Of a DNA stretch of 64,000 nucleotides, positions 7,746 to 31,712 are shown in pieces; the first letter of the stretch is position 1; every line of letters begins with the position of its first letter. The stretch spans positions 8,649 to 72,648 of the forward strand of contig CBDCTA010000017.1 of the NCBI GenBank assembly GCA_965221955.1, given 5' to 3'. Origin of the DNA: Gammaproteobacteria bacterium. Its GTDB lineage: Bacteria; Pseudomonadota; Gammaproteobacteria; UBA4575. The notes under the pieces are model-generated. The model did not search any database. It saw nothing but the letters and a program-made list of their open reading frames with translations, and was not told where the DNA came from. A program made the translations under genes and the position numbers.

Positions 7746-7788
7746 ATATAGTTAGAGGGATTCAAAAATATCTGCTTTCGGCCAATTA

Positions 7789-7849
7789 GTGAGCCCATGG
7801 ATGGGCGAATATGAGTTACAACATGGATGTTGTATCAGATTAAAGTCAG
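7789..7849 (+). repeat. Double-hairpin mini-repeat, copy 2
   Basis: GTGAGCCC-atggat-GGGC-GAATA...CAAC-atggat-GTTG...CAGATTAAAGTCAG; aligns without gaps to the reverse complement of 8507-8567, with compensatory stem changes. Confidence 0.8.
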
Positions 7850-7860
7850 ACTAAATTAAA

Positions 7861-7888
7861 ATGTCCGCTTACGGCCAATAGCGGACAT
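7861..7888. other. 28-bp palindromic site at the 3' flank of cassette 1
   Basis: ATGTCCGCTTA-CGGCCA-ATAGCGGACAT; perfect 9-bp inverted arms. Confidence 0.8.
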
Positions 7889-7899
7889 CCCATATAAAG

Positions 7900-8397
7900 T
7901 TATTTTCTAATAGTCTTTATAGAATTAGTAATACCCTTTGCTCCAAAAATAAGAAAAAGGGCAATTATAAGCTCAAAAAAGGTAGTTACCATCGAGGCTT
8001 TGTTCTCTAATAAGGCAAGCGGTGAATATAACTTTTCTTCACTGATAAATAGTGAATACAAAAACCAGAACACAAGGTCAGAAAGAACAAAAAATAAAAG
8101 ATAAGTCCCCAAGAGTATAAAACCAAGATGATAAAAATTATCTGAATTAAAGTTATGTTTAGGCTCGTCTTCCAATTTGAATGGATATATTCTTTTCGCA
8201 ATCGTAAGAGGAAATTTCCAAAGCAGTATGGATATAAATATAGCTAACCCGCTGACTAGGAAAATGTAGCCATACTTGCGAAATGTTATTGAGTCATTTA
8301 CTAGCCATAAGGCTGAAACTAATTCTCTAACTGTAGTAAGTATTAGCGCAATTGCTAATAATCTTGCTGCTACAGCAATTATTTGTTCTGGTTTCAT
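7900..8397 (-). CDS. Hypothetical 4-TM membrane protein (cassette-like)
   Basis: 165 aa with four hydrophobic segments; AGGGAG RBS; AT-rich; flanked by 28-bp palindromes. Confidence 0.8.
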   Translation of the reverse strand: MKPEQIIAVAARLLAIALILTTVRELVSALWLVNDSITFRKYGYIFLVSGLAIFISILLWKFPLTIAKRIYPFKLEDEPKHNFNSDNFYHLGFILLGTYLLFFVLSDLVFWFLYSLFISEEKLYSPLALLENKASMVTTFFELIIALFLIFGAKGITNSIKTIRK

Positions 8398-8428
8398 AAT
8401 ACAGCTCCCTAATACTTACTTTGTATTA

Positions 8429-8456
8429 ATGTCCGCTTTGGGTCGAAAGCAGTCAT
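8429..8456. other. 28-bp palindromic site at the 5' flank of cassette 1
   Basis: ATGTCCGCTTT-GGGTCG-AAAGCAGTCAT. Confidence 0.8.
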
Positions 8457-8506
8457 AATTATAGACGCAATCTGATATTCCCAACCTGTTCTCCATTCTA
8501 GTTCAA

Positions 8507-8567
8507 CTGACTCTAATCTGTTGCATCGTCCCTGATGGACATCCTATTCGCGCATCCTTGCGCTCAC
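8507..8567 (-). repeat. Double-hairpin mini-repeat, copy 3 (inverted)
   Basis: Reverse complement GTGAGCGC-aaggat-GCGCGAATAGGATGTCCATC-agggac-GATGCAACAGATTAGAGTCAG. Confidence 0.8.
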
Positions 8568-8602
8568 CTCCCTGCGCTTATACTTTGAGCCGAAAAAAAA
8601 CT

Positions 8603-9055
8603 TTATTTAAGCATCGCCTCCAACCTAGAAGCACTGAAACCACTCATTTTTTGATTACCAACCAAGATTAACGGAACACCACTGCCACCTAGTTGCTTAT
8701 ATTTTCTATTTGCACTTTCACTTTTTTCAATATCATATTCTTTGTACTTAATCCCATTACTTTGCATATATCGTCGAGCTTCAGCACAGTATCCACACCA
8801 ACTTGTTGAATACATTATTACTTTCTTTTGTTTAGCCAGTTTCTTTGTTTTTATATCACTTGCTTTTGAATACGCTGAATCACTTAAACCATCAGCATTG
8901 TTAACATTCGTATCAATCTCAACTTGCTCTGCTTTGGGCAGGGGCTTATCTGTGAAGATGACTCGACCGTTTTCGTCAACCGATTTATAGATTTCTGCAC
9001 ATAACACTGTAGGCAACAAAATAACGAGAGGCAAAAATAACTTTTTCATTTTCAA
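8603..9055 (-). CDS. Secreted DUF4124 + glutaredoxin/NrdH-like domain protein
   Basis: Signal peptide; EIYKSVDENGRVIFTDKP; MYSTSWCGYC (CxxC); GVPLILVG. Confidence 0.88.
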   Translation of the reverse strand: MKMKKLFLPLVILLPTVLCAEIYKSVDENGRVIFTDKPLPKAEQVEIDTNVNNADGLSDSAYSKASDIKTKKLAKQKKVIMYSTSWCGYCAEARRYMQSNGIKYKEYDIEKSESANRKYKQLGGSGVPLILVGNQKMSGFSASRLEAMLK

Positions 9056-9276
9056 TATCCTTGCTCTTCCAGTTCTTTCTTACGTTGCTCGGCAGAATCC
9101 ATTATCGTTTGTTCAACACCATTAGCTTTATCCAAAGCCGTTTCGTATCCTTTAAAAACATTATCGTCACTTAACTTTCCAGACTCTGGCTTTTCTTTTT
9201 CAGCCACATAAGATTGATCGCTACACCCTATAACAAGCAGTGAAAAAAGTAGTATTGTTGAAGCGAGATATTTCAT
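9052..9276 (-). CDS. Small lipoprotein
   Basis: Signal peptide with VIGC lipobox; abuts the downstream gene; start uncertain (9276-9288). Confidence 0.7.
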   Translation of the reverse strand: MKYLASTILLFSLLVIGCSDQSYVAEKEKPESGKLSDDNVFKGYETALDKANGVEQTIMDSAEQRKKELEEQGY

Positions 9277-9300
9277 ATACATAACCAACCTGTATAGAAA

Positions 9301-9621
9301 TTATAGGTCCAACCAAAGCTTCTTAGGTTGCCGCATGCCGGCTATTTTGCACCCTTGCTGACCATAACCGTATGGGAAAAGCCCATATACATACTTGCGC
9401 GTCGCTTTCTCAGGCCCCAACTCTTCTTTTAGCTGTTTAAGTATTTTACGTAATTCCGGAACTGCGCCATGATCAGAATAGTATTCTCGAATAAGTCGAA
9501 TTAAATTCCAACGTTCTTCTGTGAGCTCAACGTTTTCTTTTTTTGCAATAAACTCTGCAATTTCTTCTGTCCAATCGTCCGGATCAAGAAGAAAACCATC
9601 AGCGTCAGTATTAATATCCAT
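9301..9621 (-). CDS. TusE/DsrC/DsvC family sulfur-relay protein (lacks the C-terminal Cys)
   Basis: TDADGFLLDPDDWTEEIA, LFPYGYGQQGCKIAGM; likely ATG at 9621. Confidence 0.88.
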   Translation of the reverse strand: MDINTDADGFLLDPDDWTEEIAEFIAKKENVELTEERWNLIRLIREYYSDHGAVPELRKILKQLKEELGPEKATRKYVYGLFPYGYGQQGCKIAGMRQPKKLWLDL

Positions 9622-9625
9622 TTTA

Positions 9626-9988
9626 TTAACTTTTACTAAAGAACAAATAACCTGCGAATGCAATGAGAATGAAAGAGAATATCTTTTTAAAATTAGCAGT
9701 TGAAACATGCTCTAACAAATGCGGGCCAATTTGCGCACCAATGATTCCACCCAAACCTAATGCAATGGCAATTTTAAAATCTACATTAGCAAACTTAGAA
9801 TGCGCAAACACAGCAGAAGCAGAAATGATTAAAATCGCAAGGAACGAAGTACCTACAGCTTTTTGTGCGGTATATCCAAGTGCAATGAGCAATGGCACCA
9901 TGAGAAAACCACCACCAAGCCCAGTGAAAGAAGCAGCAATACCGATGAATAAACCCGAAAACAATAGAATTGCATAGTTGAGTGCCAT
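9626..9988 (-). CDS. Half-size TauE/SafE (TSUP) family membrane protein
   Basis: GLGGGFLMVPLL, AVGTS, GGIIGAQIG; only 120 aa (one repeat). Confidence 0.85.
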   Translation of the reverse strand: MALNYAILLFSGLFIGIAASFTGLGGGFLMVPLLIALGYTAQKAVGTSFLAILIISASAVFAHSKFANVDFKIAIALGLGGIIGAQIGPHLLEHVSTANFKKIFSFILIAFAGYLFFSKS

Positions 9989-10014
9989 AATGACTTCCTT
10001 TACGTTTACCTAAG

Positions 10015-11395
<1,381 letters not shown>

Positions 11396-11451
11396 TTAAA
11401 GCATCCTTATTAAATTAGGGCTGCAGTGTACACGAAACTTTAAGCAATGGA

Positions 11452-12576
11452 TCATTCTTCCCAGAATTTCAAATTATCAAAAAAACCTTTTACGTTGTCT
11501 GTCCACGAATGAGACTTAGGACTATGTCGATCGCCGCCTTTTTCAATATCTTTTGAAAATTCTTCTATAAGCTCTTTTTGTTTTTTAGTTAAGTTCACGG
11601 GTGTCTCAACAATTGCGGTGCACAGCATGTCACCGGTTGCACCACCACGCACAGGTTTAACCCCTTTGCCACGTAATCTAAACAAACGACCCGATTGGGT
11701 TTCACTAGGAATTTTTAATTTCACCTTACCATTAAGTGTTGGCACTTCAATTTCACCGCCCAACGCCGCCATGCTAAAGCTGATCGGCACTTGGCAAAGA
11801 AGATTATTATCCTCTCGTGTAAATAACTCATGTGGCCGCACATTGATCTCGACATAAAGATCCCCTGGCGGTCCATTGTTTGGACCAGCTTCACCTTCAC
11901 CCGACAAACGTATTCGGTCTCCAGTATCTACTCCTGCAGGAACTTTTATGGATAATTTTTTATTTTGTTTGGATCGACCTGAACCATGACAATAGTCACA
12001 AGGAACTTTAATTGTTTTTCCTTTTCCTCTGCACTTTGGACAGGTTTGTTGAATAGAAAAGAAACCTTGTTGCATGCGCACTTGACCTACACCATCACAT
12101 GTCTCACAAGTGTCGATAGATGAGTTTGGTGCAGCACCTGAACCATCACATTTTTCACAAGTACTTTGCTTTGGAATATCTATAGTCGATTCGGCACCGA
12201 AGACTGCCTCTTCAAGGCTTACTTCTAAGCCATACTGTAAATCTGCGCCACGATATACACGTTGTCCTCCACCACGGCCTCCACCGAAGATATCCCCAAA
12301 AATATCACCAAAGATATCACCAAAATCAGCCGAGCCACCCCCCATGCCACCCTGTACACCTGCATGACCGAATTGATCATAGGCTTGACGTTTACTAGGA
12401 TCACCTAAAACTTCATACGCTTCTTTGGCTTCTTTGAACTTCGCTTCGGCTTCTTGATCACCAGGATTACGATCAGGATGATATTTCATTGCTAAACGTC
12501 GGAAGGTTTTTTTTAAATCTCCTTCACTCGCCGTGCGCTCTACCCCAAGCACTTCGTAATAATCTCTTTTTTCCAT
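11452..12576 (-). CDS. dnaJ: Chaperone DnaJ
   Basis: J-domain HPD, G/F region, four CxxCxGxG repeats. Confidence 0.99.
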
Positions 12577-12604
12577 ATTGTTAGATTTTTTTTGGCTAAA
12601 TATG

Positions 12605-12637
12605 AAAAATCCGAGGTCGTTCGCACTCCCTCGGATT
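12605..12637 (-). terminator. Hairpin/terminator between dnaK and dnaJ
   Basis: AATCCGAGG...CCTCGGATT followed by a short T run on the minus strand. Confidence 0.6.
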
Positions 12638-12666
12638 GGTTAGTTAAATTTTAAGTTTGTTAAAAG

Positions 12667-14595
12667 CTATTTATTATCGTCTACTTCTTCAAACTCTGCG
12701 TCTACTACATCATCATCTGCAGCAGCACCTGCATCTTGTGCGCCAGCTCCACCACTCGCATCGCCACCGCCTGCATCATTTTGTGCATACATGCGCTCCG
12801 CTAATTTACTCGAAGCTTCTGCCAATGCTTGTGTCTTCGTTTCGATAATATCTTTATCGTCTTTATCTAACACTTCTTTAAGATCTTTAATAGCATTTTC
12901 AATTTGCATACGTTCTTCTTGCTCAACTTTATCACCCATCTCCTCGAGTGATTTTTCAGTAGCATGAATCATTTGATCAGCAGTGTTACGTGTGGCAACA
13001 AGCTCACTAAACTTCTTATCTTCTTCTGCATGTGCTTCCGCATCTTTAACCATGTTTTCAATTTCATCATCTGATAAACCACTAGAGGCTTTAATCACGA
13101 TGGATTGTTCTTTACCTGTGGCTTTATCTTTAGCCGAAACATTCAAGATACCATTTGCATCAATATCAAAGGATACTTCGATTTGCGGCACACCTCGCTG
13201 TGCTGGAGGAATATCCGTTAAATCAAAACGACCTAATGATTTATTTCCAGTTGCTTGCTCACGCTCACCTTGCAACACATGTACGGTAACCGCAGTTTGA
13301 TTATTTTCTGCAGTTGAAAACACTTGTTGTGCATTAGTAGGAATCGTGGTGTTCTTTTCAATCAATTTGGTCATCACACCACCTAAGGTTTCAATTCCTA
13401 ATGAAAGTGGAGTAACGTCTAGTAGCAATACATCTTTAACATCACCGCCTAATACACCGGCTTGAATTGCAGCACCCACTGCAACGGCTTCGTCAGGGTT
13501 TACATCTTTACGTGGTTCTTTACCGAAAAAGCCTTGTACTGTTTCTTGTACTTTCGGCATACGCGTTTGACCACCCACTAATATCACATCATCAATATCC
13601 GATGCAGATAAACCAGCATCTTTTAATGCTTGCTTACATGGTGGAATCGTACGCTGTACAAGTTCATCAACAAGTGATTCAAGCTTGGCGCGCGTTAATT
13701 TAATATTTAAATGTTTAGGGCCTGATGCATCCGCAGTGATATAAGGAAGATTCACTTCAGTTTGTTGACCAGAAGAGAGTTCAATCTTAGCTTTTTCTGC
13801 TGCTTCTTTAAGCCTTTGCAAGGCAAGTGGGTCATTATGCAAATCGAAACCTTGGTCTTTCTTAAACTCATCAGCAAGATAATCGATTAAACGCATATCG
13901 AAATCTTCACCACCTAGGAAGGTATCACCATTAGTAGATAACACTTCAAACTGATGTTCACCGTCGACTTCTGCAATTTCGATAATTGAAATATCAAAAG
14001 TACCGCCACCTAAGTCATACACCGCAATTTTGCTATCGCCGCGTTTTTTGTCCATACCATAAGCCAATGCAGCTGCAGTCGGCTCATTGATAATTCGCTT
14101 TACTTCTAGTCCAGCGATTTTGCCGGCATCTTTTGTAGCTTGTCTTTGTGAGTCATTAAAATATGCAGGCACAGTGATCACTGCTTCGGTTACTTCTTCA
14201 CCAAGATAATCTTCTGCAGTTTTTTTCATTTTCATTAGTACACGCGCAGAAATTTCAGGTGGGGCCATTTTTTTGCCACCCACTTCTACCCATGCATCGC
14301 CATTGTCGGCTTTAATAATGTTATACGGCACAAGCTTGATATCTTTTTGTACCGCATCTTCTTCATAACGCCGGCCAACTAATCGTTTAATGGCGTATAA
14401 AGTGTTATTAGGATTTGTGACCGACTGACGTTTTGCCGCTTGACCAACAAGCACTTCGTCGTCATCCGTAAATGCCACAATGGAAGGTGTGGTTCGATCG
14501 CCTTCACTATTCTCAATCACTTTAGGTGTAGTACCTTCCATGACCGCTACACACGAGTTGGTGGTACCTAAATCAATTCCAATGATTTTACCCAT
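12667..14595 (-). CDS. dnaK: Chaperone DnaK
   Basis: [27 protein letters not shown]-terminus. Confidence 0.99.
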
Positions 14596-14661
14596 CGTTG
14601 TTCTCCAAAATTCTCAAAATTTAGTTAGTTAACATTTAATCAAAAACATATTTATGCTTAT

Positions 14662-14689
14662 TAATTGGGCCTAAAAAACGGTTTTCAAG
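14662..14689 (-). promoter_or_regulatory. Sigma-32-like promoter of dnaK
   Basis: CTTGAAA-N13-CCCAATTA on the minus strand, against consensus CTTGAAA-N13/14-CCCCATNT. Confidence 0.7.
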
Positions 14690-14754
14690 CATAAAATGGT
14701 AAATAAATTCACTTTTTATGTTTCTTTGATATACCACGCCAGCCCTCAGCCACA

Positions 14755-15309
14755 TTATCCTGCGGCTTTAGAAACAATCACCATAGCGGGGCGAATCAGC
14801 CGTCCATGTAGGGTATAGCCCTTCTGCATAACGGTTAGCACTGTATTAGGCTCATGCTCCGTACTTTCCTGCATCGTCATCGCTTCGTGTAAATTAGGAT
14901 CAAACGCCTTACCGGTTGGATCAATTTCTTCTATAGAAAACTTCTCAAAAGCGTTGCTTAACATTTTCAGCGTTAATTCAGTGCCTTCTTTTAACTTTTC
15001 AAGATCTATATCATCGGTATTTAAACCCAACTCTAAGCTATCTTTGACTTGTAGCAATTCATTCGCAAACTTCTCATTTGCATATTTATGGGCATTCGAA
15101 ACATCACGTTCGGTGCGCTTACGCAAATTTTCCATTTCGGCTTGAGTGCGAATCATTTTATCTTGATACTCGGCTACTTGCTGTTGCGCTTCCTCAAGCT
15201 GTTGCTCAAGCCCATTCAAAGAATGGTCTTGTGATTCTTGATCAGATTCCTTCACGTCGGATTCATCCATATCTGCATTTTGTTCAGTTTCTTGTTCAGT
15301 ATTTGGCAT
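14755..15309 (-). CDS. grpE: Nucleotide exchange factor GrpE
   Basis: AEMENLRKR, FDPNLHEAM, QKGYTLHGRLIRPAMVIV. Confidence 0.98.
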   Translation of the reverse strand: MPNTEQETEQNADMDESDVKESDQESQDHSLNGLEQQLEEAQQQVAEYQDKMIRTQAEMENLRKRTERDVSNAHKYANEKFANELLQVKDSLELGLNTDDIDLEKLKEGTELTLKMLSNAFEKFSIEEIDPTGKAFDPNLHEAMTMQESTEHEPNTVLTVMQKGYTLHGRLIRPAMVIVSKAAG

Positions 15310-15381
15310 AAAGTTCTATGCTAATGTGTAGGCAAATAGTAATTATTCAAGTCTACAATGACAAAATTTTTAAACGTATTT

Positions 15382-16440
15382 CTAGCTGTGACTATTAAGT
15401 GCTTCGCCTAAAAGCTTAGCAGTTAGATCCACAATGGGTATTACTCTTTCGTAAGACATGCGCGTGGGTCCAACTACTGCTAATACGCCCATAATCTCAT
15501 CATCTACCGTATAGGGTGAGGTCACTACGCTGCAATCATCCAAGGCTTTGTGCCCCGATTCCTGGCCAATAAATATTTGTATACCTTCCGCACATATACA
15601 TCGATCTAACAAGTTTAAAAACTCTCGCTTTTGATTAAAAGCATCAAATAATCCTCGTAATTTATAGATATCTGACAACTCTTCGTATTCCATCAAATTG
15701 GTTTGTCCGACAACTACATAATCTGGTTTACCGCTATTCGTGTCAGAAAATATTTTTTCACCCATCTCTACTGCTGAACGCATGAGCTCATTCATATTTT
15801 CACGTACATGGTCGAGTTCTTGCAAAATTTTCTGACGTGCTACAATTAAGTCTTGGCCAGCACATAATTCATTTAAGTAGTTTGCAGCTTGTTGTAGCTC
15901 TGATGGACTGTATTCGCGATCGGTGTGAATAATACGATTCTGAACTTCTTTTTGATTCACAATCAAAATAGCTAACACGCGTTGATCTGATAAAGGTAAA
16001 AACTCTATCTGTCTTAATTCAACACGCTCATGTTTCGGCAAAGTAACTACACCTGCCATACTGGTTAATCCAGAAAGTAAGCCTGATGCGCTTTCAACCA
16101 AACCACTCATACTTAAATTTGGCTGCAAATCTTTTGACACGCGTTTCACCACATCAGAAGTAAGTGGTTGCACAGTTAGCATTGTGTCTACAAATAACCG
16201 ATAACCTTTAGTAGTTGGTACGCGACCCGAAGAAGTATGTGGAGACTCAACAAAACCCAACTCTTCTAAATCTGCCATTACATTTCGAATGGTAGCTGGA
16301 CTGACATCTAAATCGGACATTTTTGCCAGATTGCGTGAACCCATGGGGTGGCCATCTGAAATATAACTTTGCACCAACACTTTTAATAAGTGCTGCGCAC
16401 GTTCATTCAGCGATTTACTAAGATCTTCACTTGAACTCAT
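15382..16440 (-). CDS. hrcA: Heat-inducible transcription repressor HrcA
   Basis: SPATIRNVMADLEELG, PHTSSGRVPT, VGPTRMSY. Confidence 0.97.
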   Translation of the reverse strand: MSSSEDLSKSLNERAQHLLKVLVQSYISDGHPMGSRNLAKMSDLDVSPATIRNVMADLEELGFVESPHTSSGRVPTTKGYRLFVDTMLTVQPLTSDVVKRVSKDLQPNLSMSGLVESASGLLSGLTSMAGVVTLPKHERVELRQIEFLPLSDQRVLAILIVNQKEVQNRIIHTDREYSPSELQQAANYLNELCAGQDLIVARQKILQELDHVRENMNELMRSAVEMGEKIFSDTNSGKPDYVVVGQTNLMEYEELSDIYKLRGLFDAFNQKREFLNLLDRCICAEGIQIFIGQESGHKALDDCSVVTSPYTVDDEIMGVLAVVGPTRMSYERVIPIVDLTAKLLGEALNSHS

Positions 16441-16491
16441 AGTTTGAAGACAGCATTCGTAGTCACCAGATACAGTGGTTAGGCTAAAAAT

Positions 16492-19800: not shown

Positions 19801-20229
19801 TTACTCGCAATCCCCTATTCGTTGACCTACCCACTTGGTGCTCATTGTCACCATTTGACCATTAAAGTCCGCCTGCATATCCATACCCCCCGTAATCGAA
19901 TCACCAGAAGATTGTGCATGCCCATTACCAGTCATGGTAACACCTTGGTTGGCACAATTAATCGTCCACTGCATTGAATTTGCATCTACACTTGAATTGG
20001 TCACTTCGCAACCATCAGTATCATCCATCATAGTGTCAGGTGATATTTCAGACTCATCAATGCATTCTTGTGAAACATTTTCGTGCGTGCCCCCTGGGCT
20101 GGTGACAACGCTTTTAGTCTCCCACAAACCAGGCTCAACCTGCATACCACTAGCAGTGACAATGCCTAATAAACTTAGACTGAAATAAATACAAATGATT
20201 GTAATAAGTTTATTAGTTAATTTTGACAT
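19801..20229 (-). CDS. DUF3617-like secreted protein
   Basis: Signal peptide, PGLWETK, C-terminal GQRIGDC. Confidence 0.75.
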   Translation of the reverse strand: MSKLTNKLITIICIYFSLSLLGIVTASGMQVEPGLWETKSVVTSPGGTHENVSQECIDESEISPDTMMDDTDGCEVTNSSVDANSMQWTINCANQGVTMTGNGHAQSSGDSITGGMDMQADFNGQMVTMSTKWVGQRIGDCE

Positions 20230-20311
20230 AAATAAACCTTGGTTAAACAAAATCTTAAGTTACTTCATCAAACAAGCACATGCGTATTGGCACAAGTGTT
20301 TATTGAATTTC

Positions 20312-20608
20312 TTAAACTTCTTTTTGCAAATCTGCACGCGCACGACGTGCTTGCATTGGATCCACAATCAGTGGTCGATAAATTTCCACCCTATCATGCT
20401 CTTGCAATACTTGGTCCAATTGAACAATTTTACCATATATACCAAATGAATTTTTTAAGAGATCAATCTCCCCATATTTCTGCATAATCCCTGAGATTTC
20501 TATGGCTTGCCCAACATTACATTTTATAGGCACTTGTATTGTTATCACTTCCTGTTTGTCTGGAAGAGCGTATACAACAAACACAGAAATAAATTTTACA
20601 TCAACCAT
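20312..20608 (-). CDS. rnfH: RnfH/RatB (YfjF) ubiquitin-like protein
   Basis: VVYALPDKQ, DRVEIYRPLIVDP..ARRAR. Confidence 0.93.
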   Translation of the reverse strand: MVDVKFISVFVVYALPDKQEVITIQVPIKCNVGQAIEISGIMQKYGEIDLLKNSFGIYGKIVQLDQVLQEHDRVEIYRPLIVDPMQARRARADLQKEV

Positions 20609-21032
20609 AAAGTTGACTCGCTCTTTGAGTAAATGCGGAAACTAATTTATTTGCAACTTGGGTAAAGATAGGACCCAGCGTTACTGAATACAAACGGTTT
20701 GAAAATGAAAATTCCATATCTAGCTCCACTTTACAAGACTTTTCATCCAACGTCTGAAATTTCCAAGTACCAATTAAATGTTTAAATGGGCCTTTAACTA
20801 AACGCATTACTATCTCTTTATTTTCTTCTAATTCATTACAAGTAGTAACGGAAGCGTGAATGCCTCGTTTAGCAAAACTCATAGTAGCTTCTATTTCTTC
20901 TACACTTTCCTTATGCACAGTCGTTTCTACACACCAAGGCACAAACTCTGGATAGGAAGCTACATCATTCACCAAACGAAACATCTGTGCTGCAGTATAT
21001 GGCAGCAATGCACTGCGTTGAACCTTAGTCAT
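20601..21032 (-). CDS. ratA: RatA/PasT (Coq10-like START domain)
   Basis: LVNDVASYPEFVPWC, LVKGPFKHL.G.W.F. Confidence 0.93.
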   Translation of the reverse strand: MTKVQRSALLPYTAAQMFRLVNDVASYPEFVPWCVETTVHKESVEEIEATMSFAKRGIHASVTTCNELEENKEIVMRLVKGPFKHLIGTWKFQTLDEKSCKVELDMEFSFSNRLYSVTLGPIFTQVANKLVSAFTQRASQLYG

Positions 21033-23015: not shown

Positions 23016-23105
23016 GCCGAGCGCAATAACTGTTCTATTTTCAAGCAATACTTTCTTAAATTAGGTTAACCAAAGTATTTGCTAAGAAGTTATTTTAGCA
23101 GTAAA

Positions 23106-23330: not shown

Positions 23331-23449
23331 GAAATCTCTCCACAATTAGGCGCAGTCTAGTTGCGCTTAAAGCTTGGGTTAGTTAGAAAGAGCAAAATGT
23401 AGCGAAATTCTAGCAAGTCGGCAACTGCTAAGAGCATGCATAAATTGAC

Positions 23450-24166
23450 TTATTCAGCGTTTTCTTCAAGCCATACACAGCCTGACTCGCTTTCCTGCTG
23501 AATTTTATTTAGAAAGGCTTCATGCGCTTGTAACTCGCTCTCATCTGCATAAATCACTTTGAGAGCCTCGCGGTCCCCATCAAGCCCTGCTCTTGATCGC
23601 TTACGTTGAGCTGCGTTATCAGCATTTGCAGATAAACTGAGAGTAGCTTGTCCACCGGTTAACGCTAAATATACATCTGCGAGTATCTGCGCATCTAGTA
23701 ACGCACCGTGAAGCTCACGATGTGAATTATCGATTTCATACCGTTTACAAAGCGCATCTAGATTATTTTTTTGACCAGGATGCATCTTTCTTGCCATCTC
23801 AAGCGAATCAGTCACTTTACAGCAACTATTAATATCCGTAACGCTATGACCCACTAGCGCTAATTCCGCATTGATAAACCCAACATCAAAACTTGCGTTG
23901 TGAATGATCAACTCAGTGTCTGCTATGAATTCAATAAAATCATCCGCAATACTATGAAATTTAGGTTTGTCAGCAAGAAATTCTAAACTAATTCCATGCA
24001 CTTCTTGTGCACCTGCATCGATCTCGCGCTCTGGATTAAGAAATTGATGAAATTTTTGGTCTGTTGTGCGTCTGTGTAAAATCTCAACACAACCAATTTC
24101 AATAATTCGGTGCCCTTGCAAGACTTCTAAACCCGTAGTTTCAGTATCCAGAACAACTTGACGCAT
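23450..24166 (-). CDS. dnaQ: DNA polymerase III epsilon subunit
   Basis: LDTETTGL, HNASFD, LHGALLDA. Confidence 0.98.
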   Translation of the reverse strand: MRQVVLDTETTGLEVLQGHRIIEIGCVEILHRRTTDQKFHQFLNPEREIDAGAQEVHGISLEFLADKPKFHSIADDFIEFIADTELIIHNASFDVGFINAELALVGHSVTDINSCCKVTDSLEMARKMHPGQKNNLDALCKRYEIDNSHRELHGALLDAQILADVYLALTGGQATLSLSANADNAAQRKRSRAGLDGDREALKVIYADESELQAHEAFLNKIQQESESGCVWLEENAE

Positions 24167-24200
24167 AAATCAATCCAAAAATTAAACGTGTATCGAACAA

Positions 24201-24647
24201 CTACAATAACAAATTATCGATCGCTTCATTCGCTAATTGATCCACTATTTCATTTTCTGCATGACCACTATGCCCTTTCACCCATTCCCAAGTCACGCTA
24301 TGTTTTTCAACCAACTTATCCAATTGTTTCCATAAATCTTCATTCTTAACCGGTTTTTTAGCAGCGGTTTTCCAACCATTGCGTTTCCAATTCGCCATCC
24401 ACTGCTGAATTCCATCCATTAAATAGCGCGAATCTGTTGTTATATGTACGTTGCAAGGGCGTGTGAGTTTTTCCAAGGCAGACACTGCAGCCTGTAACTC
24501 CATGCGATTATTGGTCGTGAGCTCTTCAGCCCCCTGAAGTAAAGTTTCTTTCCCTCCATAGCGCAAAATAGCGCCCCAGCCCCCTGGCCCAGGATTCCCC
24601 CTACAGGCTCCGTCAGTGAAGATTTCGACGCGTTGTTCTGTTGGCAT
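24201..24647 (-). CDS. rnhA: Ribonuclease HI
   Basis: [32 protein letters not shown]. Confidence 0.98.
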
Positions 24648-25395
24648 GCTGTCTTGCACTTGGTTCAGTTACATTCACTGGAATAATACGACGACGAGGC
24701 CGCCACGGTTGTGGCAGTGGTGTAAGAGTGAGTTCTCGTTTTTTTGCCACAAATATCTGCAAACCACCAAAACTTCCAAAACCGACACGTTCAGCTTTGC
24801 TAATGAATTGCATACGTTGTTGAAAACGTAAATTTTGAATGGGCGGGCGCATGCCCACATGTTCAATACTCATGACTTTAAAATCGAGTAATGAAAGCCA
24901 GTCTTTTATTCTCCTTGCAGTATAAAAATGTCCTGCCCAGGGTGCGCGCTGACTACGCATGAAAATTAATTTGCTAAATCCCATCATGCTAATCGGATTA
25001 AAACCAATCATGACCAAATGTCCTTCAGAAATTAATACGCGATGTATTTCACGCAACACCTGATGGGGCTCAGGCGAAAAATCTAAAGTATGCGGCAAAA
25101 CAATGAGGTCCAAAGTGTCTTGAGAAAAGGGTAACGCTAAAGGGTTAGCCGCAACATTCCCTTGCTTAGTATCTAGCGTCATGTAAATTTTCTGACCGAT
25201 TGTACTACTCGATAGTAAATCAAGCTCTTCTGATAAACCGCCAATCTGTAAAGCATGATAACCAAACAAACTAGGGAGTAATTGTTCTAATTTAGCCTGT
25301 AGCTCTTTGTATAAAATTTGTCCTGCTGGTGTTATATACCAGCCCTGCAATTGCTGTGTATATTTTGCATAATTAAACTGCACAGATTCTTTCAT
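24613..25395 (-). CDS. YafS-like class I SAM-dependent methyltransferase
   Basis: [28 protein letters not shown]; conserved position upstream of rnhA. Confidence 0.9.
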
Positions 25396-25531
25396 GTGTT
25401 TTATTTTACCTTAAAACAAACATTTGTAACGTAAACTTTTCATACTAGATAAAGACCGCAGTAAATTTAATAAATTCATTTTTAAATTTAGTTGTTGAAC
25501 TATTTATACAGTGTATTTATGCTTCGCGGCG

Positions 25532-26953
25532 ATGAAGAAGAAGCTATTCAATAAAAATGCTTTAGTCATAAGTATATTGGCTTTTTTTATCGTCGCATGT
25601 TCACACGCCCCAACAAAATCTGATCTTACGAATATAACGAATACTAGCAAAATAGTTTTTACCACAACGACACAAAAACCAGATTTAATTATTCCACCAG
25701 CAAGTAATTTACTTAATCACAACATAACTAAAAATAACACAAAAGATCGTCTTATTTGGGAACATATAAGTGACAGTCTTGAACTCACGAAATTTTATTC
25801 CCACCCGCACGTTATCAAACAACAAGAAAAATATTTAGCTGAAAGCGAATATTTATCTATAGTCAGTAAACGCTCAGAGCCATTTATTCATTTTGTTTTA
25901 ACTGAAGTTAAAAAGCGCAAGATGCCAGCCGAGCTTGCGATTTTACCTATCGTTGAGAGTGGCTATTATCCTCGCGCCCGCTCGCGCGCAAAGGCTGAGG
26001 GTTTGTGGCAAATCATGCCGTATACCGGCAAGGAATTAGGGCTCAAACACACGTATCAATACGATGGGCGTCACGATGTATATGCTGCGACTTCTGCAGC
26101 TCTCGATTATCTAGAACAAATGCATCGCCGTTTTGATGGTGACTGGTTACTAGCTCTAGCGGCTTATAATGCAGGTCCGCATCGCGTTAAGCGCGCGCTT
26201 CAACACTCAATACATTCGAAAAACGAAAATTCATATTGGGATTTGCATTTGCCTCGCGAAACACGTCAATACATTCCAAAAATTTTGGCATTAAGTGCAA
26301 TCGTTCAGAACGAAGAATTTAGTGACACCTTATTGTACCCAATTGCTGATAAGCCTTACTTACAAACCATCCAGCTTTCGAAACGAATTTCTCCAGCTAA
26401 GTTAGTCCATGCTACAGATGTAAGTGAAAGTGAAATAAAATTACTTAACCCTGCATTACGAAATTTGAACACCCCAATCCATGCTGGATATCACTTGCTT
26501 GTACCAAAGCATGACGCCGAATTTTTATCTCTTGCAATTGAAAAGATGCCAGAAGATACGCAACCTGTTTTAGCAAAACATATAATCAATCGCGGTGAAT
26601 CGTTAAGTACTATCGCACATCGTTACGGCACTAGTGTAATTGCTTTACGTGAGGCAAATAATTTATATAGCAACACCATTGTGGCTGGACACTCATTATT
26701 CGTGCCTTCGACATCAGATGCAGAAATTATTAAATCCTCCAACAAACCAAAACAACCAAAATCTCCCATACAACGCTCTGCCAACAATACGAACAAATCA
26801 ATCGCAGAACCCTATATGTATGTTGTCGCCATGGGGGATAGCTTTTGGAAAATTGCCCATCGCAATAACACTACAGTTCAACGCCTATATAAAATCAATG
26901 GTCGAAATGGTGATGAACCTCTACTCCCAGGTGAGACCATTCTGGTTGATTAG
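25532..26953 (+). CDS. mltD: Membrane-bound lytic murein transglycosylase D (SLT + LysM)
   Basis: LPIVESGY, GLWQIMP, ALAAYNAG, ETRQYIPKI, C-terminal LysM repeats. Confidence 0.92.
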   Translation: MKKKLFNKNALVISILAFFIVACSHAPTKSDLTNITNTSKIVFTTTTQKPDLIIPPASNLLNHNITKNNTKDRLIWEHISDSLELTKFYSHPHVIKQQEKYLAESEYLSIVSKRSEPFIHFVLTEVKKRKMPAELAILPIVESGYYPRARSRAKAEGLWQIMPYTGKELGLKHTYQYDGRHDVYAATSAALDYLEQMHRRFDGDWLLALAAYNAGPHRVKRALQHSIHSKNENSYWDLHLPRETRQYIPKILALSAIVQNEEFSDTLLYPIADKPYLQTIQLSKRISPAKLVHATDVSESEIKLLNPALRNLNTPIHAGYHLLVPKHDAEFLSLAIEKMPEDTQPVLAKHIINRGESLSTIAHRYGTSVIALREANNLYSNTIVAGHSLFVPSTSDAEIIKSSNKPKQPKSPIQRSANNTNKSIAEPYMYVVAMGDSFWKIAHRNNTTVQRLYKINGRNGDEPLLPGETILVD

Positions 26954-27303
26954 CTTGTAAACCCTGCCCTCGCCCTGTTGCTTGGATGCTCTATGCCTGC
27001 TAAAACTGTGGATTCCTTACATAATCCACTGATTTTAATGGCATTACGTCCCTAAAATTAGATAACTCGTCGCGCTTTTTGCCAGCACTTATGGTGGCAC
27101 TTGCTAGGTCTGTAGTATGCTCCAAGACCTTGAAATACCAATACAATCGCCGTGGAAATCACCTTCGCAAAGACGAAGTACATAGACCTGGAATCGTCAT
27201 TATCCGCCATGAAGCAAATGGACCTTCTTAGCATTGCCCTAAAAGCAAATGATAGACGCACGAGTTTTCTAAAACTTCTCGCCTACATATAACCAAAATT
27301 CAA

Positions 27304-28829
27304 ATGCTCAGAGAAAATAAAATCGACATGAAGTGGTTTGCATTGAGCTTGCTGGGTGTAGTGTTAGTCGCCACAGTATTATGGAACTTGAGCATTTCCC
27401 CATTGATTACCCAAGTTACGATAATTGTTTTAATTTCTATAATTTCGCTCAGCTGGGCTTTTCTGGGTACACCTTCTTCCAGCAATCCACAATCTAAGCA
27501 CAACGATATTTCATATAGATTTGAATCGCGCAATAGTGATCGTAGTGTTGGTCTTAAACTACAAGGGTTAGGTCAACTCAATTTAGCTTTTGAAAAATTT
27601 AAACAATGTCCACATAACCATGACACGGCAAATTTAATTTATAACTTAGCAAGCGATTTTCAAATCAAAGGTGAACCAGAAAATGCTAAAAAAGCATTTT
27701 TATACATTGCAAATTTTGCAGCCAAACTTCAAAGACATTCAGGAGCGAATTGCATCCTTTAACAGCGATCTTATCTTACTTAGAACCTAACGAAGAACAG
27801 GTAGATGCCATTTCTGTAATTGCAGCACTACTTCAAACTCAACAAAATGCACCTGAAAATACGGAAGCGAACCTACTTCTAGCGGACCAATCTACTATTA
27901 TCGAAAAAGCGATTGAAACAGATAAAACGTTAATCATCGCCCCTGATGCAGAGCCAGAAGAGGAGGAAGTAATTGCTGGCGAACTCAACGAATATCCTTC
28001 GCTTTACGGCAGTCGCTATAAAGTTAATAGTGTTCTAGGTCAGGGTACAACTGGGGCAGTATTTAAGGGCAAAGATATTGTTACTGATCAAATAGTAGCC
28101 ATTAAAGTACTCAACCTATCCGATGAATTAGAAGAAAACCAACTAGACGAATATAAATTCCGTTTTCATCGAGAAATCGAAACTGCTGGCAATTTAAGCC
28201 ACCCTAATATCGTTAAAATACTGGATAGCGGCGAAACCGAAGGCTATGCCTATATTGCCATGGAATACGTAGATGGCATTAATTTACGCAATTATGCACG
28301 CGCTGATCAATTACTCCACCCTAGGACTGTGCTCAAAATAATTGCCCAGTGTGCTGATGCACTTGCCTATTCTCACAAGCAAGACCTAATCCACCGTGAT
28401 ATCAAACCAGCAAATATCATATATAACAAAACCGATGATTACGTTAAGCTTACGGACTTTGGTATAGCAAGAATTCCTGATTCTACACGAACTCGTGCAG
28501 GGTCTATTTTGGGAACGCCTTTATATATGTCACCAGAGCAACTTGCGGGGGAGAAATTAGATGCACGCTCTGATCTATATTCTTTAGGAGTCACTCTATA
28601 CCATTTACTAACTGGCTCACCGCCGTTTCGACCTAAAACTATGGCCGAGTTAATGCGCTCTATCACACAAGAACAACACAAAGATATTGCTGAAATTAAT
28701 CCTGACATACCTTCGTGCATTGCATGGTCAGTAAATAAAGCCTTAGAAAAAGATCCTGATAAACGCTTCCAGTCAGCTGCAAGCATGGCCAACAAACTTC
28801 GCGAATGCGAGATGATGATAGATAATTAA
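27304..28829 (+). CDS. Membrane-anchored Hanks-type Ser/Thr protein kinase (frameshifted near 27710-27780)
   Basis: N-terminal TM + TPR-like ORF 27304-27762; intermediate frame reads PNFKDIQERI; kinase ORF 27750-28829 has LGQG, VAIK, HRDIKPAN, DFG, YMSPE. Confidence 0.88.
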
Positions 28830-28830
28830 T

Positions 28831-29658
28831 ATGGATCTTAAAGGCATCTTAGATATCGCAGGTCGCTCGAACACAGGGTTGGTACGTTCTAATAACGAAG
28901 ACAAAATTGGTGAAGATCAAGAAATTGGTTTAGTCGTACTTGCTGATGGTATGGGGGGTTACAAAAGCGGTGAAGTTGCAAGTGAAATTGCAGTCAACAC
29001 GATTCTTGAAGAACTCCGTAAATCCGTACCTGATTTAACGCCTGGCGAAATAGATGAGCAAACAGGCTATACAAAAGAAAGTTTAGCAGCGAGAAATTCA
29101 ATCGTAAAAGCGAATGAAGCGATTTTTTCCATGAGTAGCAGCGAAGCTCAGTATCGCGGCATGGGAACAACATTAGTCATGGGTATTTTTTACGATAACC
29201 AAATTACCATTGCACACGTTGGTGACTCAAGAATGTATCGTTACCGTGATAATAAATTACAACAAATAACAGTTGACCATACCTTACTACAAGAATTAGT
29301 TGACCGTGGTTTTTACACACAAGAAGAAGCAAACACCTCGCTGAATAAAAACTTAGTCACTCGAGCACTAGGCATTGAAGGCAGCATTGCGGTAGACATC
29401 AAAGAAGATTTGGCGATGCCTGGCGATATCTATTTGCTGTGTTCCGACGGTCTGACAGATATGGTCGATGATCAGGAAATTCATGCCACCGTAACGGCGT
29501 TTAGGGATAATCTTGATCAGTTGGCTGACAAGCTTGTCGCGATAGCCAATAACAATGGAGGCCGGGACAATGTCTCGGTTTTATTAGCGCAACCTAATAA
29601 AGAATTCCCCGGAAAGAAAAACTGGAAGTCAAAGTTCGGTAAGTTATTAGCGAAGTAA
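28831..29658 (+). CDS. PP2C-type Ser/Thr phosphatase (Stp1/PrpC-like)
   Basis: RSNNED, LADGMGG, HVGDSR, LCSDGL, GGRDN. Confidence 0.95.
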   Translation: MDLKGILDIAGRSNTGLVRSNNEDKIGEDQEIGLVVLADGMGGYKSGEVASEIAVNTILEELRKSVPDLTPGEIDEQTGYTKESLAARNSIVKANEAIFSMSSSEAQYRGMGTTLVMGIFYDNQITIAHVGDSRMYRYRDNKLQQITVDHTLLQELVDRGFYTQEEANTSLNKNLVTRALGIEGSIAVDIKEDLAMPGDIYLLCSDGLTDMVDDQEIHATVTAFRDNLDQLADKLVAIANNNGGRDNVSVLLAQPNKEFPGKKNWKSKFGKLLAK

Positions 29659-29661
29659 GTT

Positions 29662-30555
29662 ATGAGTACGCCTAAGTTAATTGTAAGCATTGATGAAAAA
29701 GTTGTAGATGAAGTTCCTATCGAAAAGGAAACCATAACAATTGGTAGACGCACTGATAATGATATTTGCTTAGATAACCTAGCAATCAGCGGTTATCATT
29801 CTCAAATTAGCACAGTCTTAGATGACTGTTTTTTAGAAGATTTAAATAGCACGAATGGCACATTCGTAAATTCCAAAATCGTAAAAAAGCATGCGCTTAA
29901 AGATGGCGATATTATCGATATCGGCAATCATAGAATTAAATATGTGAACCATCTTGCCACCACTTCAGCAAATAATGAGTTTGAAAAAACTCTTATCATG
30001 ACTGCAAACTCAGAAAGGAATAACAACCTATCTGATGAACAAGACATAAGCAATTTAGAAAAAGAAATTAATTCACTTGAAGAAGATATAGTCGATGCAA
30101 CAAACGAAGATGAAGTAAATGATCTTTTAGATTCAGCAATAAACTCATCTCGCGAAGATATTGATAAAGTAATTTCTAGCCCTAAAGATCACTCTCTTGA
30201 ACTTTCTGAAGAAGATGATGGTGACACCCAAGAAACAGAAGATGCCAAAATTGATACTGAATTTAATTCACAACCACCTGCTACTGTAAGTATCGGGCGA
30301 ATTCAAATTCTAAATGGTAAAAATAGTGGTAAAGAAATCACCTTAGACAAATCTTTAACAACAGTAGGCAAACCTGATGTTGCAGTCGTTGGTATCACAA
30401 AACGTAATCAAGGCTATTTTATTATCCACATTGATGGTAATCCTGATACACCTTCAAAACTAAACGGCGAAGCAATTGTTGGCAAAGCCCAACCTATAGA
30501 AGACCACGACATCATTGATGTTGCAGGAATTAAGTTAGAATTCTTTGTCGAATGA
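29662..30555 (+). CDS. FHA domain protein
   Basis: IGRRTDND, ISGYHS, DLNSTNGTFVN; acidic linker; degenerate second FHA-like domain. Confidence 0.92.
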   Translation: MSTPKLIVSIDEKVVDEVPIEKETITIGRRTDNDICLDNLAISGYHSQISTVLDDCFLEDLNSTNGTFVNSKIVKKHALKDGDIIDIGNHRIKYVNHLATTSANNEFEKTLIMTANSERNNNLSDEQDISNLEKEINSLEEDIVDATNEDEVNDLLDSAINSSREDIDKVISSPKDHSLELSEEDDGDTQETEDAKIDTEFNSQPPATVSIGRIQILNGKNSGKEITLDKSLTTVGKPDVAVVGITKRNQGYFIIHIDGNPDTPSKLNGEAIVGKAQPIEDHDIIDVAGIKLEFFVE

Positions 30556-30584
30556 TTGCAGCGATACTTGGACAGATCTAAATG

Positions 30585-30609
30585 AAAGCCAGCGTATGCT
30601 GGCTTTTTT
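30585..30609 (+). terminator. Intrinsic terminator of the kinase-phosphatase-FHA operon
   Basis: AAAGCCAGC-gtat-GCTGGCTTT followed by a T run. Confidence 0.85.
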
Positions 30610-30613
30610 GATG

Positions 30614-30641
30614 ATGACTGCTTTAGGCCAATAGCAGTCAT
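30614..30641. other. 28-bp palindromic site at the 3' flank of cassette 2
   Basis: ATGACTGCTTT-AGGCCA-ATAGCAGTCAT; perfect 9-bp inverted arms. Confidence 0.8.
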
Positions 30642-30710
30642 TCAATCCAATGAATTTTCAGTATGAAATACTGATAAATAAATTAAGCCCAATAGTTATT
30701 AATTTATATC

Positions 30711-31551
30711 TCATTTAATCTCAGATAAAAGATCAGGATTTGTGACTAGCTTTCTTACCCCCATGAGCATGATCTTCTTTAAATACATTATCATTACACC
30801 ACTTTCCAAGTGTATTAATATCTAACTTGGCGCACTTAGGACGAACACTCCAAGTGACTTGTAGTGGAGAGCAGACCTGTTCTGTGTATTTAGGACCTGT
30901 CGTAGAACCCAAGAATTCTATGGGCTTCCCTGTATTGGCTGGAATCATCTTAGCTTGATGCAAACCATTTACTTTATTTCCTTCATAAGATATGTCATTA
31001 AAATCAAGTGCAGAATTATCATTCACAAGCGTAAATACTTGCGTCTCAACTCGTAGATTTGGATTTGCACAACTCTCTGATAAGCATGATCCCAAGCCTT
31101 GGCCTGGCATTACATCACATGAACTATGTACCCAATGTACTTCAATCGTGTCTCCAGGATTTAAACCTTTACATACCGTGTCTCCAGGTGGCATCAATTC
31201 TGTTTTGCTGAGTGATTGACTTATATTGCACTTATATCCTCCTCCAGATCCGTTTTCACCATCACCCGCAAAAATTGAGAATGCCTCTGCCTTATGTTCC
31301 GCATTATTATGGAAATGTATATTGCACAAATTCATTTCTTTATAATTGGGCGCTAATGCAAAAACTCTTTTGTTTGTACCAACAACGCTATCAATATCTC
31401 TAGGTGTTTGTGGCCCATAGCCTTGACATGCAGTCGCTTTGATATCATTTGAATGTAATTCAGCATCAGGGAGCTCTTCTTCACCGATACAAACTATTGG
31501 TAGTGAAATTAAGAGAGATGTAATTAATGTTTTAATATTTAGATGCCTCAT
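30711..31551 (-). CDS. Secreted delta-class (TWCA1-like) carbonic anhydrase; +1 G near the 3' end
   Basis: Signal peptide, GYGPQTPRDID, LCNIHFHNNAEHK, IEVHWVHSSC, GSTTGP, CSPLQVTW; removing one G at ~30760 restores HAHGVRKLVTNPDLLSEIK*. Confidence 0.82.
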
Positions 31552-31587
31552 TTTTAGTTCCTAATAGTATTTAAAGTTTATTCGATA

Positions 31588-31712
31588 ATGTTCGCTTTGG
31601 GTCGATAGAAATTTGCTCCTCGACAATTGCTTCCTGCATTGCTCTACCTTCTGCATCCATGCAGTCGTACAATTTCTGCACTTCCACCCTCCATGGTGGT
31701 CGTAGCAGTCAT
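31588..31712. other. 28-bp palindromic site at the 5' flank of cassette 2, split by a 97-bp insertion
   Basis: ATGTTCGCTTT-GGGTCG-ATAG[97 bp]CAGTCAT; TAG occurs at both junctions (31606-31608 and 31703-31705). Confidence 0.75.
31609..31705 (+). repeat. Nested pair of REP-like mini-elements
   Basis: Outer unit AAATTTGCTCCT...ACAATTTCTGCACTTCCACC-ctccat-GGTGGTCGT contains inner unit CGACAATTGCTTCCTGCATTGCTCTACCTTCTGC-atccat-GCAGTCGT. Confidence 0.75.

Follow-up and report, generated by a model that had tools for sequence, protein, structure and literature searches.

Paired 28-bp palindromes delimit single-gene units that behave as cassettes and may be recombination sites in a gammaproteobacterial genome

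What is a 28-bp palindrome that stands on both sides of single, unrelated accessory genes, and does it take part in moving them? The question is raised by a 64,000-nucleotide stretch of gammaproteobacterial DNA (the window, G000:C17:8649–72648), in which such palindromes, made of two 11-bp arms around a 6-bp centre, bracket a membrane protein gene and a delta carbonic anhydrase (delta-CA) gene. Here G000 denotes the source genome, an assembly of 2.69 Mb in 29 contigs that is 96.6% complete, other G numbers the related genomes, C numbers contigs and L numbers individual loci or records. A first-pass annotation had read the two loci as mobile cassettes moved in trans by a recombinase. We find support for the palindromes delimiting single-gene units that behave as cassettes, and give a probability of about one half to the reading that they are double-stranded recombination sites, bounding mobile single-gene modules for a trans-acting recombinase.

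The palindromes are numerous and clustered in the source genome. A scan that scored the 22 arm positions and left the centre unscored found 165 sites with at least 17 of 22 matches, against 1 in the reversed-genome control. By their centres, 75 belong to class A (CGGCCA), 77 to class B (GGGTCG) and 13 are ambiguous. A neighbour lies within 2 kb for 144 of the 165, whereas random placement over 200 trials gave 35.3 on average and never more than 52. Contigs shorter than 100 kb carry 105 of the sites while holding 28% of the bases.

Sites scattered singly would have spoken against cassettes, as the first-pass annotation itself had said, and the 144 clustered sites show another picture. The scan for site pairing that it had proposed finds them bracketing single genes or forming arrays of up to about 24 sites. 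C5 has an array of 23 sites in 8.6 kb and C23 one of 24 sites in 12.5 kb; others lie on C26, C11, C14 and C10 and at 132–136 kb of C29. The large contigs carry dispersed A..B pairs with 300–1,300 bp between them.

The order of sites and genes follows a simple grammar. It was examined in intervals of 120–1,600 bp between neighbouring sites, taking the longest open reading frame (ORF) where it covered at least half of the interval. The gene runs from B to A in 33 of 36 single-ORF intervals bounded by an A and a B site, as 18 A+..B+ units with a minus-strand gene and 15 B-..A- units with a plus-strand gene. Eight further A/B intervals have no dominant ORF, three have no ORF of at least 40 aa, and other class combinations occur one to four times each. 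In the 33 canonical units the ORF has a median of 125 aa (range 67–234), and the median distance is 29 nt between B and the start codon and 12 nt between the stop codon and A.

Neighbouring cassettes are joined by linkers of 45 or 55 nt with a conserved centre. Accordingly, the 31 short-range B/A pairs are spaced, start to start, by 72/73 bp in 16 cases, 82/83 bp in 13 and 59 bp in two. One linker of the C5 array holds a match to the sigma-70 promoter consensus (TTGGAA-17-TAAAAT), the whole scan giving 26 matches against 38.9 in shuffles. The Rfam search found no family in three arrays or around the first window locus, all matches being at chance level.

The two site classes share an asymmetry. 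In B, the left arm agrees with the consensus at 816 of 847 positions and the right arm at 709 of 847, a marked division into a strong and a weak arm; in A, the right arm is modestly the better one (758 of 825 against 731 of 825). The stronger arm faces the gene in both classes and the weaker one faces outward. Starting at the strong arm, the centre reads TGGCCG in A and GGGTCG in B, with differences at two positions. A and B are thus one asymmetric site in inverted copies. The 6-bp centre is nearly invariant and as conserved as the arms (the classification tolerated two mismatches), and the inner arm bases read CTTT before the centre and AAAG, ATAG or TTAG after it.

The arms do not vary as a stem would. 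Their variants had been described as covarying, which fails over the 152 classified sites: positions 4 and 25 form a Watson-Crick pair in 78 and positions 6 and 23 in 81, with Fisher p values of 0.10–0.70. Pairing within and between the palindromes of 31 composites likewise has no pattern favouring one long hairpin. The absence of compensatory change, the strong and weak arms and the conserved centre together argue for a double-stranded site bound by a dimer and not for a stem-loop kept by pairing. The arms behave like protein half-sites.

The gene content between the sites differs between closely similar contigs. The pairs C14/C23, C10/C29 and C11/C26 are 97–99.7% identical over kilobases and differ only in their cassettes. 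The assembly has 4.3% contamination, and we read the two versions of two loci, C14/C23 and C10/C29, which are about 99% identical, as co-assembled strains; two or more strains are probably mixed in G000, its assembly breaking at the variable islands. C14 and C23 agree in their flanks, with dsbC-xerD-RDD at one end and lptF/G at the other. C14 alone carries a 1,034-bp segment between two A sites, with genes for an HxlR-type regulator and a flavodoxin-like reductase, and from the next A site to the terminal B site it has 1.5 kb against 11 kb of unrelated cassettes in C23. C10 and C29 share flanks of 8.7 kb and 2.3 kb, and their terminal A and B sites enclose 1.4 kb and 4.0 kb of different cassettes. 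All six strain-variant breakpoints lie within 12 nt of a site, five of them within 4 nt.

Paralogous cassettes at unrelated loci have their edges at the sites, too. The membrane protein cassette of the window (7861–8456) is 78% identical to C5:3077–3669 with edge offsets of 0/0, and C5:749–1535 is 86% identical to C26:69643–70422 with offsets of +7/-1. The homology between the cassettes at C5:25760 and C11:2700, 97% identical, begins at offset 0. Between species, the position upstream of an EAL/HDOD gene holds different cassettes in G000, in G004 and in G011/G014, no site in the stretch examined of G012, G006 and G013, and only a partial A-like remnant in G007. No clean empty site was found at orthologous loci, as the relatives are about 75% identical and their synteny is not kept.

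Two more repeats accompany the sites and linkers. The outer repeat O, of about 60 bp, forms inverted pairs that bound islands and solitary units. It holds two small hairpins, of which one stem varies yet stays paired (CATCA/TGATG versus CAACA/TGTTG). About 35 copies occur in G000 (for example C2:219884, C18:29579, C22:45745 and C29:575453), O also occurs alone, and two gene-less O-palindrome-O elements of about 200 bp lie at C22:45735–45935 and C29:575440–575610. A search of Rfam with O gave no match. Beside some O copies (C2:219924–219960, C18:29550–29580, C22:238470–238500) we noticed a short repeat, ..GTCATT.CGAGG....GCAATCC.., which we take to resemble the common repetitive extragenic palindromes (REPs) of Alphaproteobacteria; its pattern count is mostly noise.

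The other repeat, R3, is a structured sequence of about 90 bp with internal inverted repeats that is often found at island edges. Seven copies were aligned: window 31609–31697, C22:168249–168344, C22:41266–41371, C2:219189–219265, C23:10641–10740, C14:8488–8587 and C3:28579–28637. Four of the seven (window, C22:168249, C22:41266 and C3:28579) lie inside a palindrome, between both arms, while the C23 and C14 copies retain only a partial arm and C2:219189 none. R3 could be a variant of the site with a long centre, or an element that targets the site centre.

The window itself holds three intact sites, at 7861–7888, 8429–8456 and 30614–30641, exactly as the first-pass annotation had written them. 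They were read directly and recovered by a pattern search, which gave three loci (6 strand matches) against 0.04 expected; none of 100 shuffles reached 6. Two irregular sites that had been reported are also real. The degenerate half-site at 7768 is a truncated A site, and the site with an insert at 31588 is a B site that breaks off after base 21, is interrupted for about 90 bp and continues at 31698–31712. The common gene polarity and the 5' gap of 31–36 bp hold as well.

The first cassette forms a complete island. Its outer-left O copy (7690–7747, plus strand) is degenerate and has the extended 5' part with the hairpin; its partner is the O copy at 8506–8566. Then come the truncated A site (7768–7784, plus), reduced to the left arm and the CGGCCA centre as the start of the next O copy replaces the right arm, and the inner-left O copy with a 19-nt leader (7799–7860, plus; O part 7799–7842) that abuts the A site. 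The same O and leader precede terminal A sites of other islands, among them C23:10769, C14:8423 and C22:24067. The A site CGGCCA (7861–7888, plus) is the 3' boundary of the cassette, 11 nt past the stop codon of the minus-strand gene at 7900–8397 for a 165-aa multi-pass membrane protein without a Pfam family. The B site GGGTCG (8429–8456, plus) is the 5' boundary, 31 nt from the ATG. After it, a linker module (8457–8505, plus) has the conserved centre ..GATATTCC/CAACC.. of the B-A linkers in arrays, and no A site follows this copy. The right O copy (8506–8566, minus), inverted relative to the left ones, closes the island.

The second cassette follows a plus-strand block at 27750–30555 that encodes a Ser/Thr protein kinase, a PP2C phosphatase and an FHA-domain protein. 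A terminator-like hairpin of the converging FHA-domain gene closes the block, and the A site (AGGCCA; 30614–30641, plus) that forms the 3' boundary follows directly. The cargo is the minus-strand delta-CA gene at 30733–31551 (PF10563, E 1.1e-75). Its B site, 36 nt before the ATG, comprises the left arm, the centre and four bases of the right arm (31588–31608, plus), is interrupted by R3 (31609–31697, plus) and ends with a partial repeat of the centre and then the right arm (31698–31712, plus).

The cargo is typical accessory material. Scanning 20 cassette proteins against Pfam left 6 without a family and revealed no recombinase. Those recognized include delta carbonic anhydrase, an M23 peptidase lipoprotein, a Rieske protein, two GNATs, SnoaL-like, DUF1428, flavodoxin-like reductase and OsmC proteins, a Na+/H+ exchanger, TPR, cytochrome c, alpha/beta hydrolase and GGACT. 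The delta-CA gene occurs in 7 of the 41 genomes searched, flanked by sites in G000, G019 and G015, which represent three genera, and not so in G006, G008, G009 and G020.

The palindromes reach far beyond the source genome. The B pattern, with up to two mismatches, is found in 20 of the 41 related genomes (13 of 14 of the same genus, 5 of 10 of other genera of the family and 1 of 16 of other families), and the backwards controls gave 0 throughout. The exact 28-mer occurs in at least 113 stretches of species-representative genomes. Among the matches listed are Lysobacter, Noviluteimonas, Caulobacter, Sphingomonas, Sphingomicrobium, Phenylobacterium, Burkholderiales and a Nitrospinaceae genome, with GC contents of 50–68% against 39% in G000. 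Identical 28-mers at 39% and 65% GC argue for sequence-specific recognition. The family is present in Alpha-, Beta- and Gammaproteobacteria.

Arrays spaced at 300–600 bp occur in a Caulobacter species (38 sites in the genome, with one 24-kb region) and in Sphingomicrobium. The Caulobacter array contig holds no tyrosine recombinase, and the 5 kb between its opposed halves no recombinase-like ORF as judged by eye, without a Pfam scan. Relatives of the palindrome with the same arm core, the centres TCGCTC and GTGCCA and a distance of 40–42 bp lie between small accessory modules along 45 kb of a Pantoea megaplasmid, on a Klebsiella plasmid and within islands of E. coli. The genes enclosed are single ones (HEPN, DUF4160) and, in one case, an AAA-ATPase/DUF4435 pair, and at least one match occurs in 1,312 of 5,426 complete E. 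coli genomes. On the E. coli chromosome L168, the AAA-ATPase and DUF4435 pair at 3154–6067 has palindrome dimers on both sides and adjoins an ATP-dependent nuclease/UvrD-helicase pair; these are putative anti-phage systems. On the Pantoea vagans plasmid L169, two annotated fosfomycin-resistance glutathione transferase genes (20219–20644 and 31689–32114) lie in a palindrome-rich patchwork; upstream of the latter, at 84 nt, there is a palindrome, and downstream of it, at 69 nt, a dimer.

The sites also have an orientation on the chromosome. In the complete genome G019, with dif at 1,911,912 and dnaA at 585,409, the cassette gene is co-directional with replication for 86 of the 97 listed B sites (105 counted). 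Either selection on gene orientation or the mechanism may lie behind this bias. In the same genome, sites of mixed orientation cluster 100–130 kb from dif, and three A-class sites of G000 (C4:64595, 65484 and 65790) lie 5–6 kb from its dif.

How might such sites work? In gene orientation, a module consists of B, about 25 nt with a ribosome-binding site, the ORF, about 10 nt and A; the 45- or 55-nt linkers join modules into chains, and the islands are set within the O inverted repeat. A dimeric, sequence-specific recombinase supplied in trans would bind the arms and exchange strands in the centre. Recombination would occur only between like centres, A with A and B with B. By such exchange, units of a gene and a site would be cut out, inserted or swapped, and A/B inversion within a module would not take place. 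We infer that the joints are made by a site-specific enzyme, not by general recombination, with the crossover in the centre.

Several observations weigh against this reading, beginning with the sites and their surroundings. The centres of A and B differ, so no single simple integration event yields both. Three of the 36 intervals have the opposite polarity, and four genes occupy the B..A linker position. The sites are always accompanied by other small repeats, namely the linker, O and R3, which is a hallmark of the mosaics formed by REPs and bacterial interspersed mosaic elements (BIMEs).

The turnover data can be read in other ways, too. The strain variants come from one metagenome-assembled genome with the contamination given above, and we infer rather than prove that they are alleles. 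At the C14/C23 difference, the three A sites differ at too few positions for the crossover to be placed. Breakpoints at 28-bp repeats could equally stem from homologous or illegitimate recombination. Excised or circular forms were not seen among the contigs of four sequencing runs, which are short pieces only and uninformative either way. Apparent junctions in these contigs proved to be cross-mapped repeat copies, a B-31 nt-A joint being identical to the composite at C5:4551/4610.

A further point is the enzyme, as no recombinase for the sites was identified in cis or in trans. When 1,259 ORFs from 113 listed site-bearing loci outside G000 were clustered, no family was shared by more than six loci. 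The complete, site-rich genomes G010, G014 and G019 have no match to the integron integrase (IntI) family at E<=1e-10 beyond two Xer-type recombinases. The Y1 (HUH) transposases of the REP-associated tyrosine transposase (RAYT) type, PF01797, are absent from G000 and from these three genomes. A search for IS110 and rve transposases found none in G000 either. A and B being inverted copies of one site, the units do have the inverted ends of a cargo or miniature transposon.

The cassette reading of the first-pass annotation is supported as to structure and turnover and finds no backing as to the recombinase. It had also asked whether a tyrosine recombinase or HUH gene lies by a cluster. The full tyrosine-recombinase census, made in G000 only, yielded an integrase of 437 aa, a XerC type and a XerD type, the last in two near-identical copies, one each on C14 and C23. 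It is this XerD that lies beside the C14/C23 array; its gene is the housekeeping xerD with dsbC after it, an ordinary context, and the adjacency is seen at this one locus only. No HUH/Y1 gene was found. The statement that the arms match neither the XerC/XerD arms nor the integron attC cores was confirmed by the dif comparison, the site profiles and the composites.

The foremost rival takes the sites as intergenic palindromes of the REP/BIME type and the gene turnover as a by-product of general recombination between repeats. They would be selfish miniature elements, or have a structural or RNA role such as protecting mRNA ends, and would accumulate in variable islands. The palindrome family is so widespread that this REP-like reading is a serious rival, although we consider it less likely than the recombination-site reading. 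Its main argument is the constant mosaic of linker, O and R3. Like REPs, BIMEs and REP doublets forming hairpins (REPINs), the sites are short, high-copy, intergenic palindromes, placed mainly between genes of the same direction, often heterodimers with conserved spacers of fixed length, and mixed with other motifs; in the broad sense they fit the REP/BIME type. The lack of a dedicated enzyme or transposase in evidence fits them as well, and the co-orientation of the 86 listed B sites with replication, hence with transcription, suits an element acting at the RNA level.

Other observations speak against such an origin. The arms have no compensatory changes, and about half of the sites are mispaired at 4/25 and at 6/23. 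The 6-nt would-be loop is conserved like the 11-bp arms, and its two classes are tied to the 5' and 3' sides of genes. The sites are largely confined to variable islands, as their excess on the short contigs shows, the six strain breakpoints and three paralogy edges all fall at sites, and identical 28-mers recur in taxa of 39% and 65% GC. Membership in the RAYT/REP system was rejected for want of a Y1 transposase in G000 and the complete site-rich genomes; PF01797 does occur in 4 of the same-family relatives (24 without G000), among them G018, which is free of sites.

A particular class of REPs deserves a comparison. Tagged REPs are described in the part of PMC3733652 available to us as having an unpaired GTAG or CGTC/TGTC tag, a stem of 8–9 bp starting with AT, a loop of 4–5 nt and a CCA-like tail. 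That text also says that CGTC REPs have no transposase dedicated to them and are mostly head-to-head dimers (PMC3733652), which speaks for the REP-like reading. The present sites do not fit the definition: their TGTC is paired with GACA, the arms are 11 bp long, the centre has 6 nt and there is no CCA tail, and it is by this textual description only, from the part seen, that they are set apart (PMC3733652). The strings GTCCGC and GCGGAC are absent from the text of PMC3733652, as far as it was available.

The dRS3 repeats of Neisseria, which serve as phage attachment sites, are close to the present sites in one respect. They, too, are short inverted repeats that bound DNA blocks in mosaic arrays and may serve as attachment sites for mobile elements carrying a recombinase. 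In contrast, the dRS3 blocks are non-coding repeat units, whereas here they are genes, and the sequences are unrelated. In the available part of PMC3733652, dRS3 is equated with the class CGTC-1.

In a second rival, a large serine recombinase moves the cassettes and the palindromes are its attachment sites. The enzyme, encoded at C26:85304–86926, is the sole serine recombinase of G000 and belongs to a five-gene element (C26:85304–90595) with DUF2924, a terminase-like protein, DUF5681 and a ParB-N/DNA methylase fusion. Counterparts in G019 (C1:1190216–1195584) and G010 (C1:1048792–1055055) occupy the syntenic locus, near a metallophosphoesterase gene, and in all three genomes the element is beside a site array or cluster. 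Relatives of the element are frequent on small 'viral' contigs, with 194 candidate stretches.

The element is on four of the seven contigs of the viral collection that hold the exact palindrome. At L183 and L186 palindromes lie about 70 to 400 bp from the end of the recombinase gene, and in L183 inverted clusters of palindromes stand on either side. The 2-bp central crossover of such an enzyme would suit a 28-bp site, and 4 of 20 site-bearing relatives have this recombinase against none of 21 site-free ones. But it is missing from the other 16 site-bearing relatives, including the complete G001 and G014, and the 80 best viral loci that encode relatives of it (40–58% identity) are all without a family palindrome. 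Moreover, the sites nearest to the element in G000 are weak (15–17/22) and 0.3–3 kb off, and the central dinucleotides of A and B differ. We consider this assignment improbable.

A third rival sees the cassettes as chromosomal counterparts of the pdif modules of Acinetobacter plasmids, also called xrs, recombined by the host XerC and XerD. The likeness is considerable. The sites have the same layout of 28 bp with 11-bp arms and a 6-bp centre, and XerC and XerD are the sole recombinases found in every carrier, one array adjoining xerD. In the xrs cassettes, according to the part of PMC11705084 available to us, one arm is well conserved and the other is poorer, a module lies between inversely oriented sites whose centres diverge, no recombinase belongs to the module and matching centres are proposed to be necessary for exchange. 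All of this has its parallel here, the matching of centres as part of the proposed mechanism.

The sequences themselves speak otherwise. The motif ATAA-centre-TTAT, which determines XerC/XerD binding and cutting as far as that source was seen (PMC11705084), is absent from the site arms. The arms are also unrelated to the XerC and XerD arms and unlike the canonical dif of G000 at C4:59807, and the neighbouring xerD is in its ordinary xerD-dsbC context at one locus. Unlike the Acinetobacter modules, the present ones are chromosomal, in about 165 copies and arrays of tens, spread over several proteobacterial classes, and have two sites and a conserved linker between the gene modules. Action of XerC/XerD at these sites is therefore very improbable.

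Integrons and their relatives without an integrase, the clusters of attC sites lacking integron integrases (CALINs), resemble the system outwardly. Both have same-orientation arrays of compact, mostly single-gene accessory units (33 of the 36 intervals here), imperfect palindromic sites, fast turnover between strains and a cargo of small secreted or membrane proteins, GNATs and unknowns, and in both an array may lack an adjacent recombinase gene. An attC has been described in the older literature as consisting of two simple sites. The A-linker-B composite of 101–111 bp, within the attC length range, would then be an aberrant attC in arrays of short ORFs that apparently have no promoters of their own.

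The integrase does not accompany the sites. The best IntI (TIGR02249) match in G000 reaches 83 bits against a cut-off of 265, its matches being of the Xer type and skipping profile positions 189–236. IntI exceeds the cut-off in 6 of the 41 relatives, of which only G015 bears sites, and in 2 of 25 same-family genomes (G000 included), G015 and the site-free G013. No site was found in 20 kb (G015) and 18 kb (G013) around intI, or in the six intI loci L139–L144. G013 is the only genome of its genus, which is that of G000, without any site (0 with either pattern) and the only one with an IntI over the cut-off.

The sites differ as well. Site profiles and composite ends contain no attC cores (RYYYAAC...GTTRRRY), the half-site asymmetry is that of a protein-bound duplex and not a folded-strand signature, and many solitary units and small islands lie around the chromosome inside the outer inverted repeat. 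With no IntI by the arrays, no attC cores, no Rfam match in them and A and B at opposite ends even of solitary cassettes, where an integron cassette has one 3' attC, integron membership was rejected, and a CALIN-like origin is scarcely credible.

We place the system among pdif-like modules and REP-like mosaics as a variant of these, and its palindrome family is widespread, reaching the defence islands of E. coli. Full-text literature searches, by sequence and by words, found no description of the site or the system; supplements and the consensus figures of PMC3733652 were outside their coverage, so that a listing there is possible. Tentatively, and with less assurance than for the recombination sites as such, we propose a third integrase-less cassette system beside integrons and Xer/pdif. 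It would use 28-bp sites and a recombinase in trans to hold single accessory genes in exchangeable modules and arrays across Alpha-, Beta- and Gammaproteobacteria, including defence-gene modules of E. coli and plasmid cargo of Pantoea and Klebsiella. The miniature O elements would be its dispersed integration platforms in this lineage.

Even if the REP-like reading is right, the palindromes are a clear example of repeats structuring the strain-level turnover of genes, and would be a REP family without a known transposase that is conserved to the base across classes. If the palindromes are true recombination sites, much of the small accessory gene content in many Proteobacteria would be organised and exchanged by a cassette mechanism that current tools overlook. 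Integron finders, catalogues of insertion sequences and REPs and island predictors would miss the system, including the anti-phage genes of E. coli islands and the cargo of large plasmids. The site grammar could also help to explain why assemblies break at variable islands in these lineages. A 28-bp site with a defined grammar offers a handle to fish for the enzyme and to delimit accessory modules in genomes and metagenomes.

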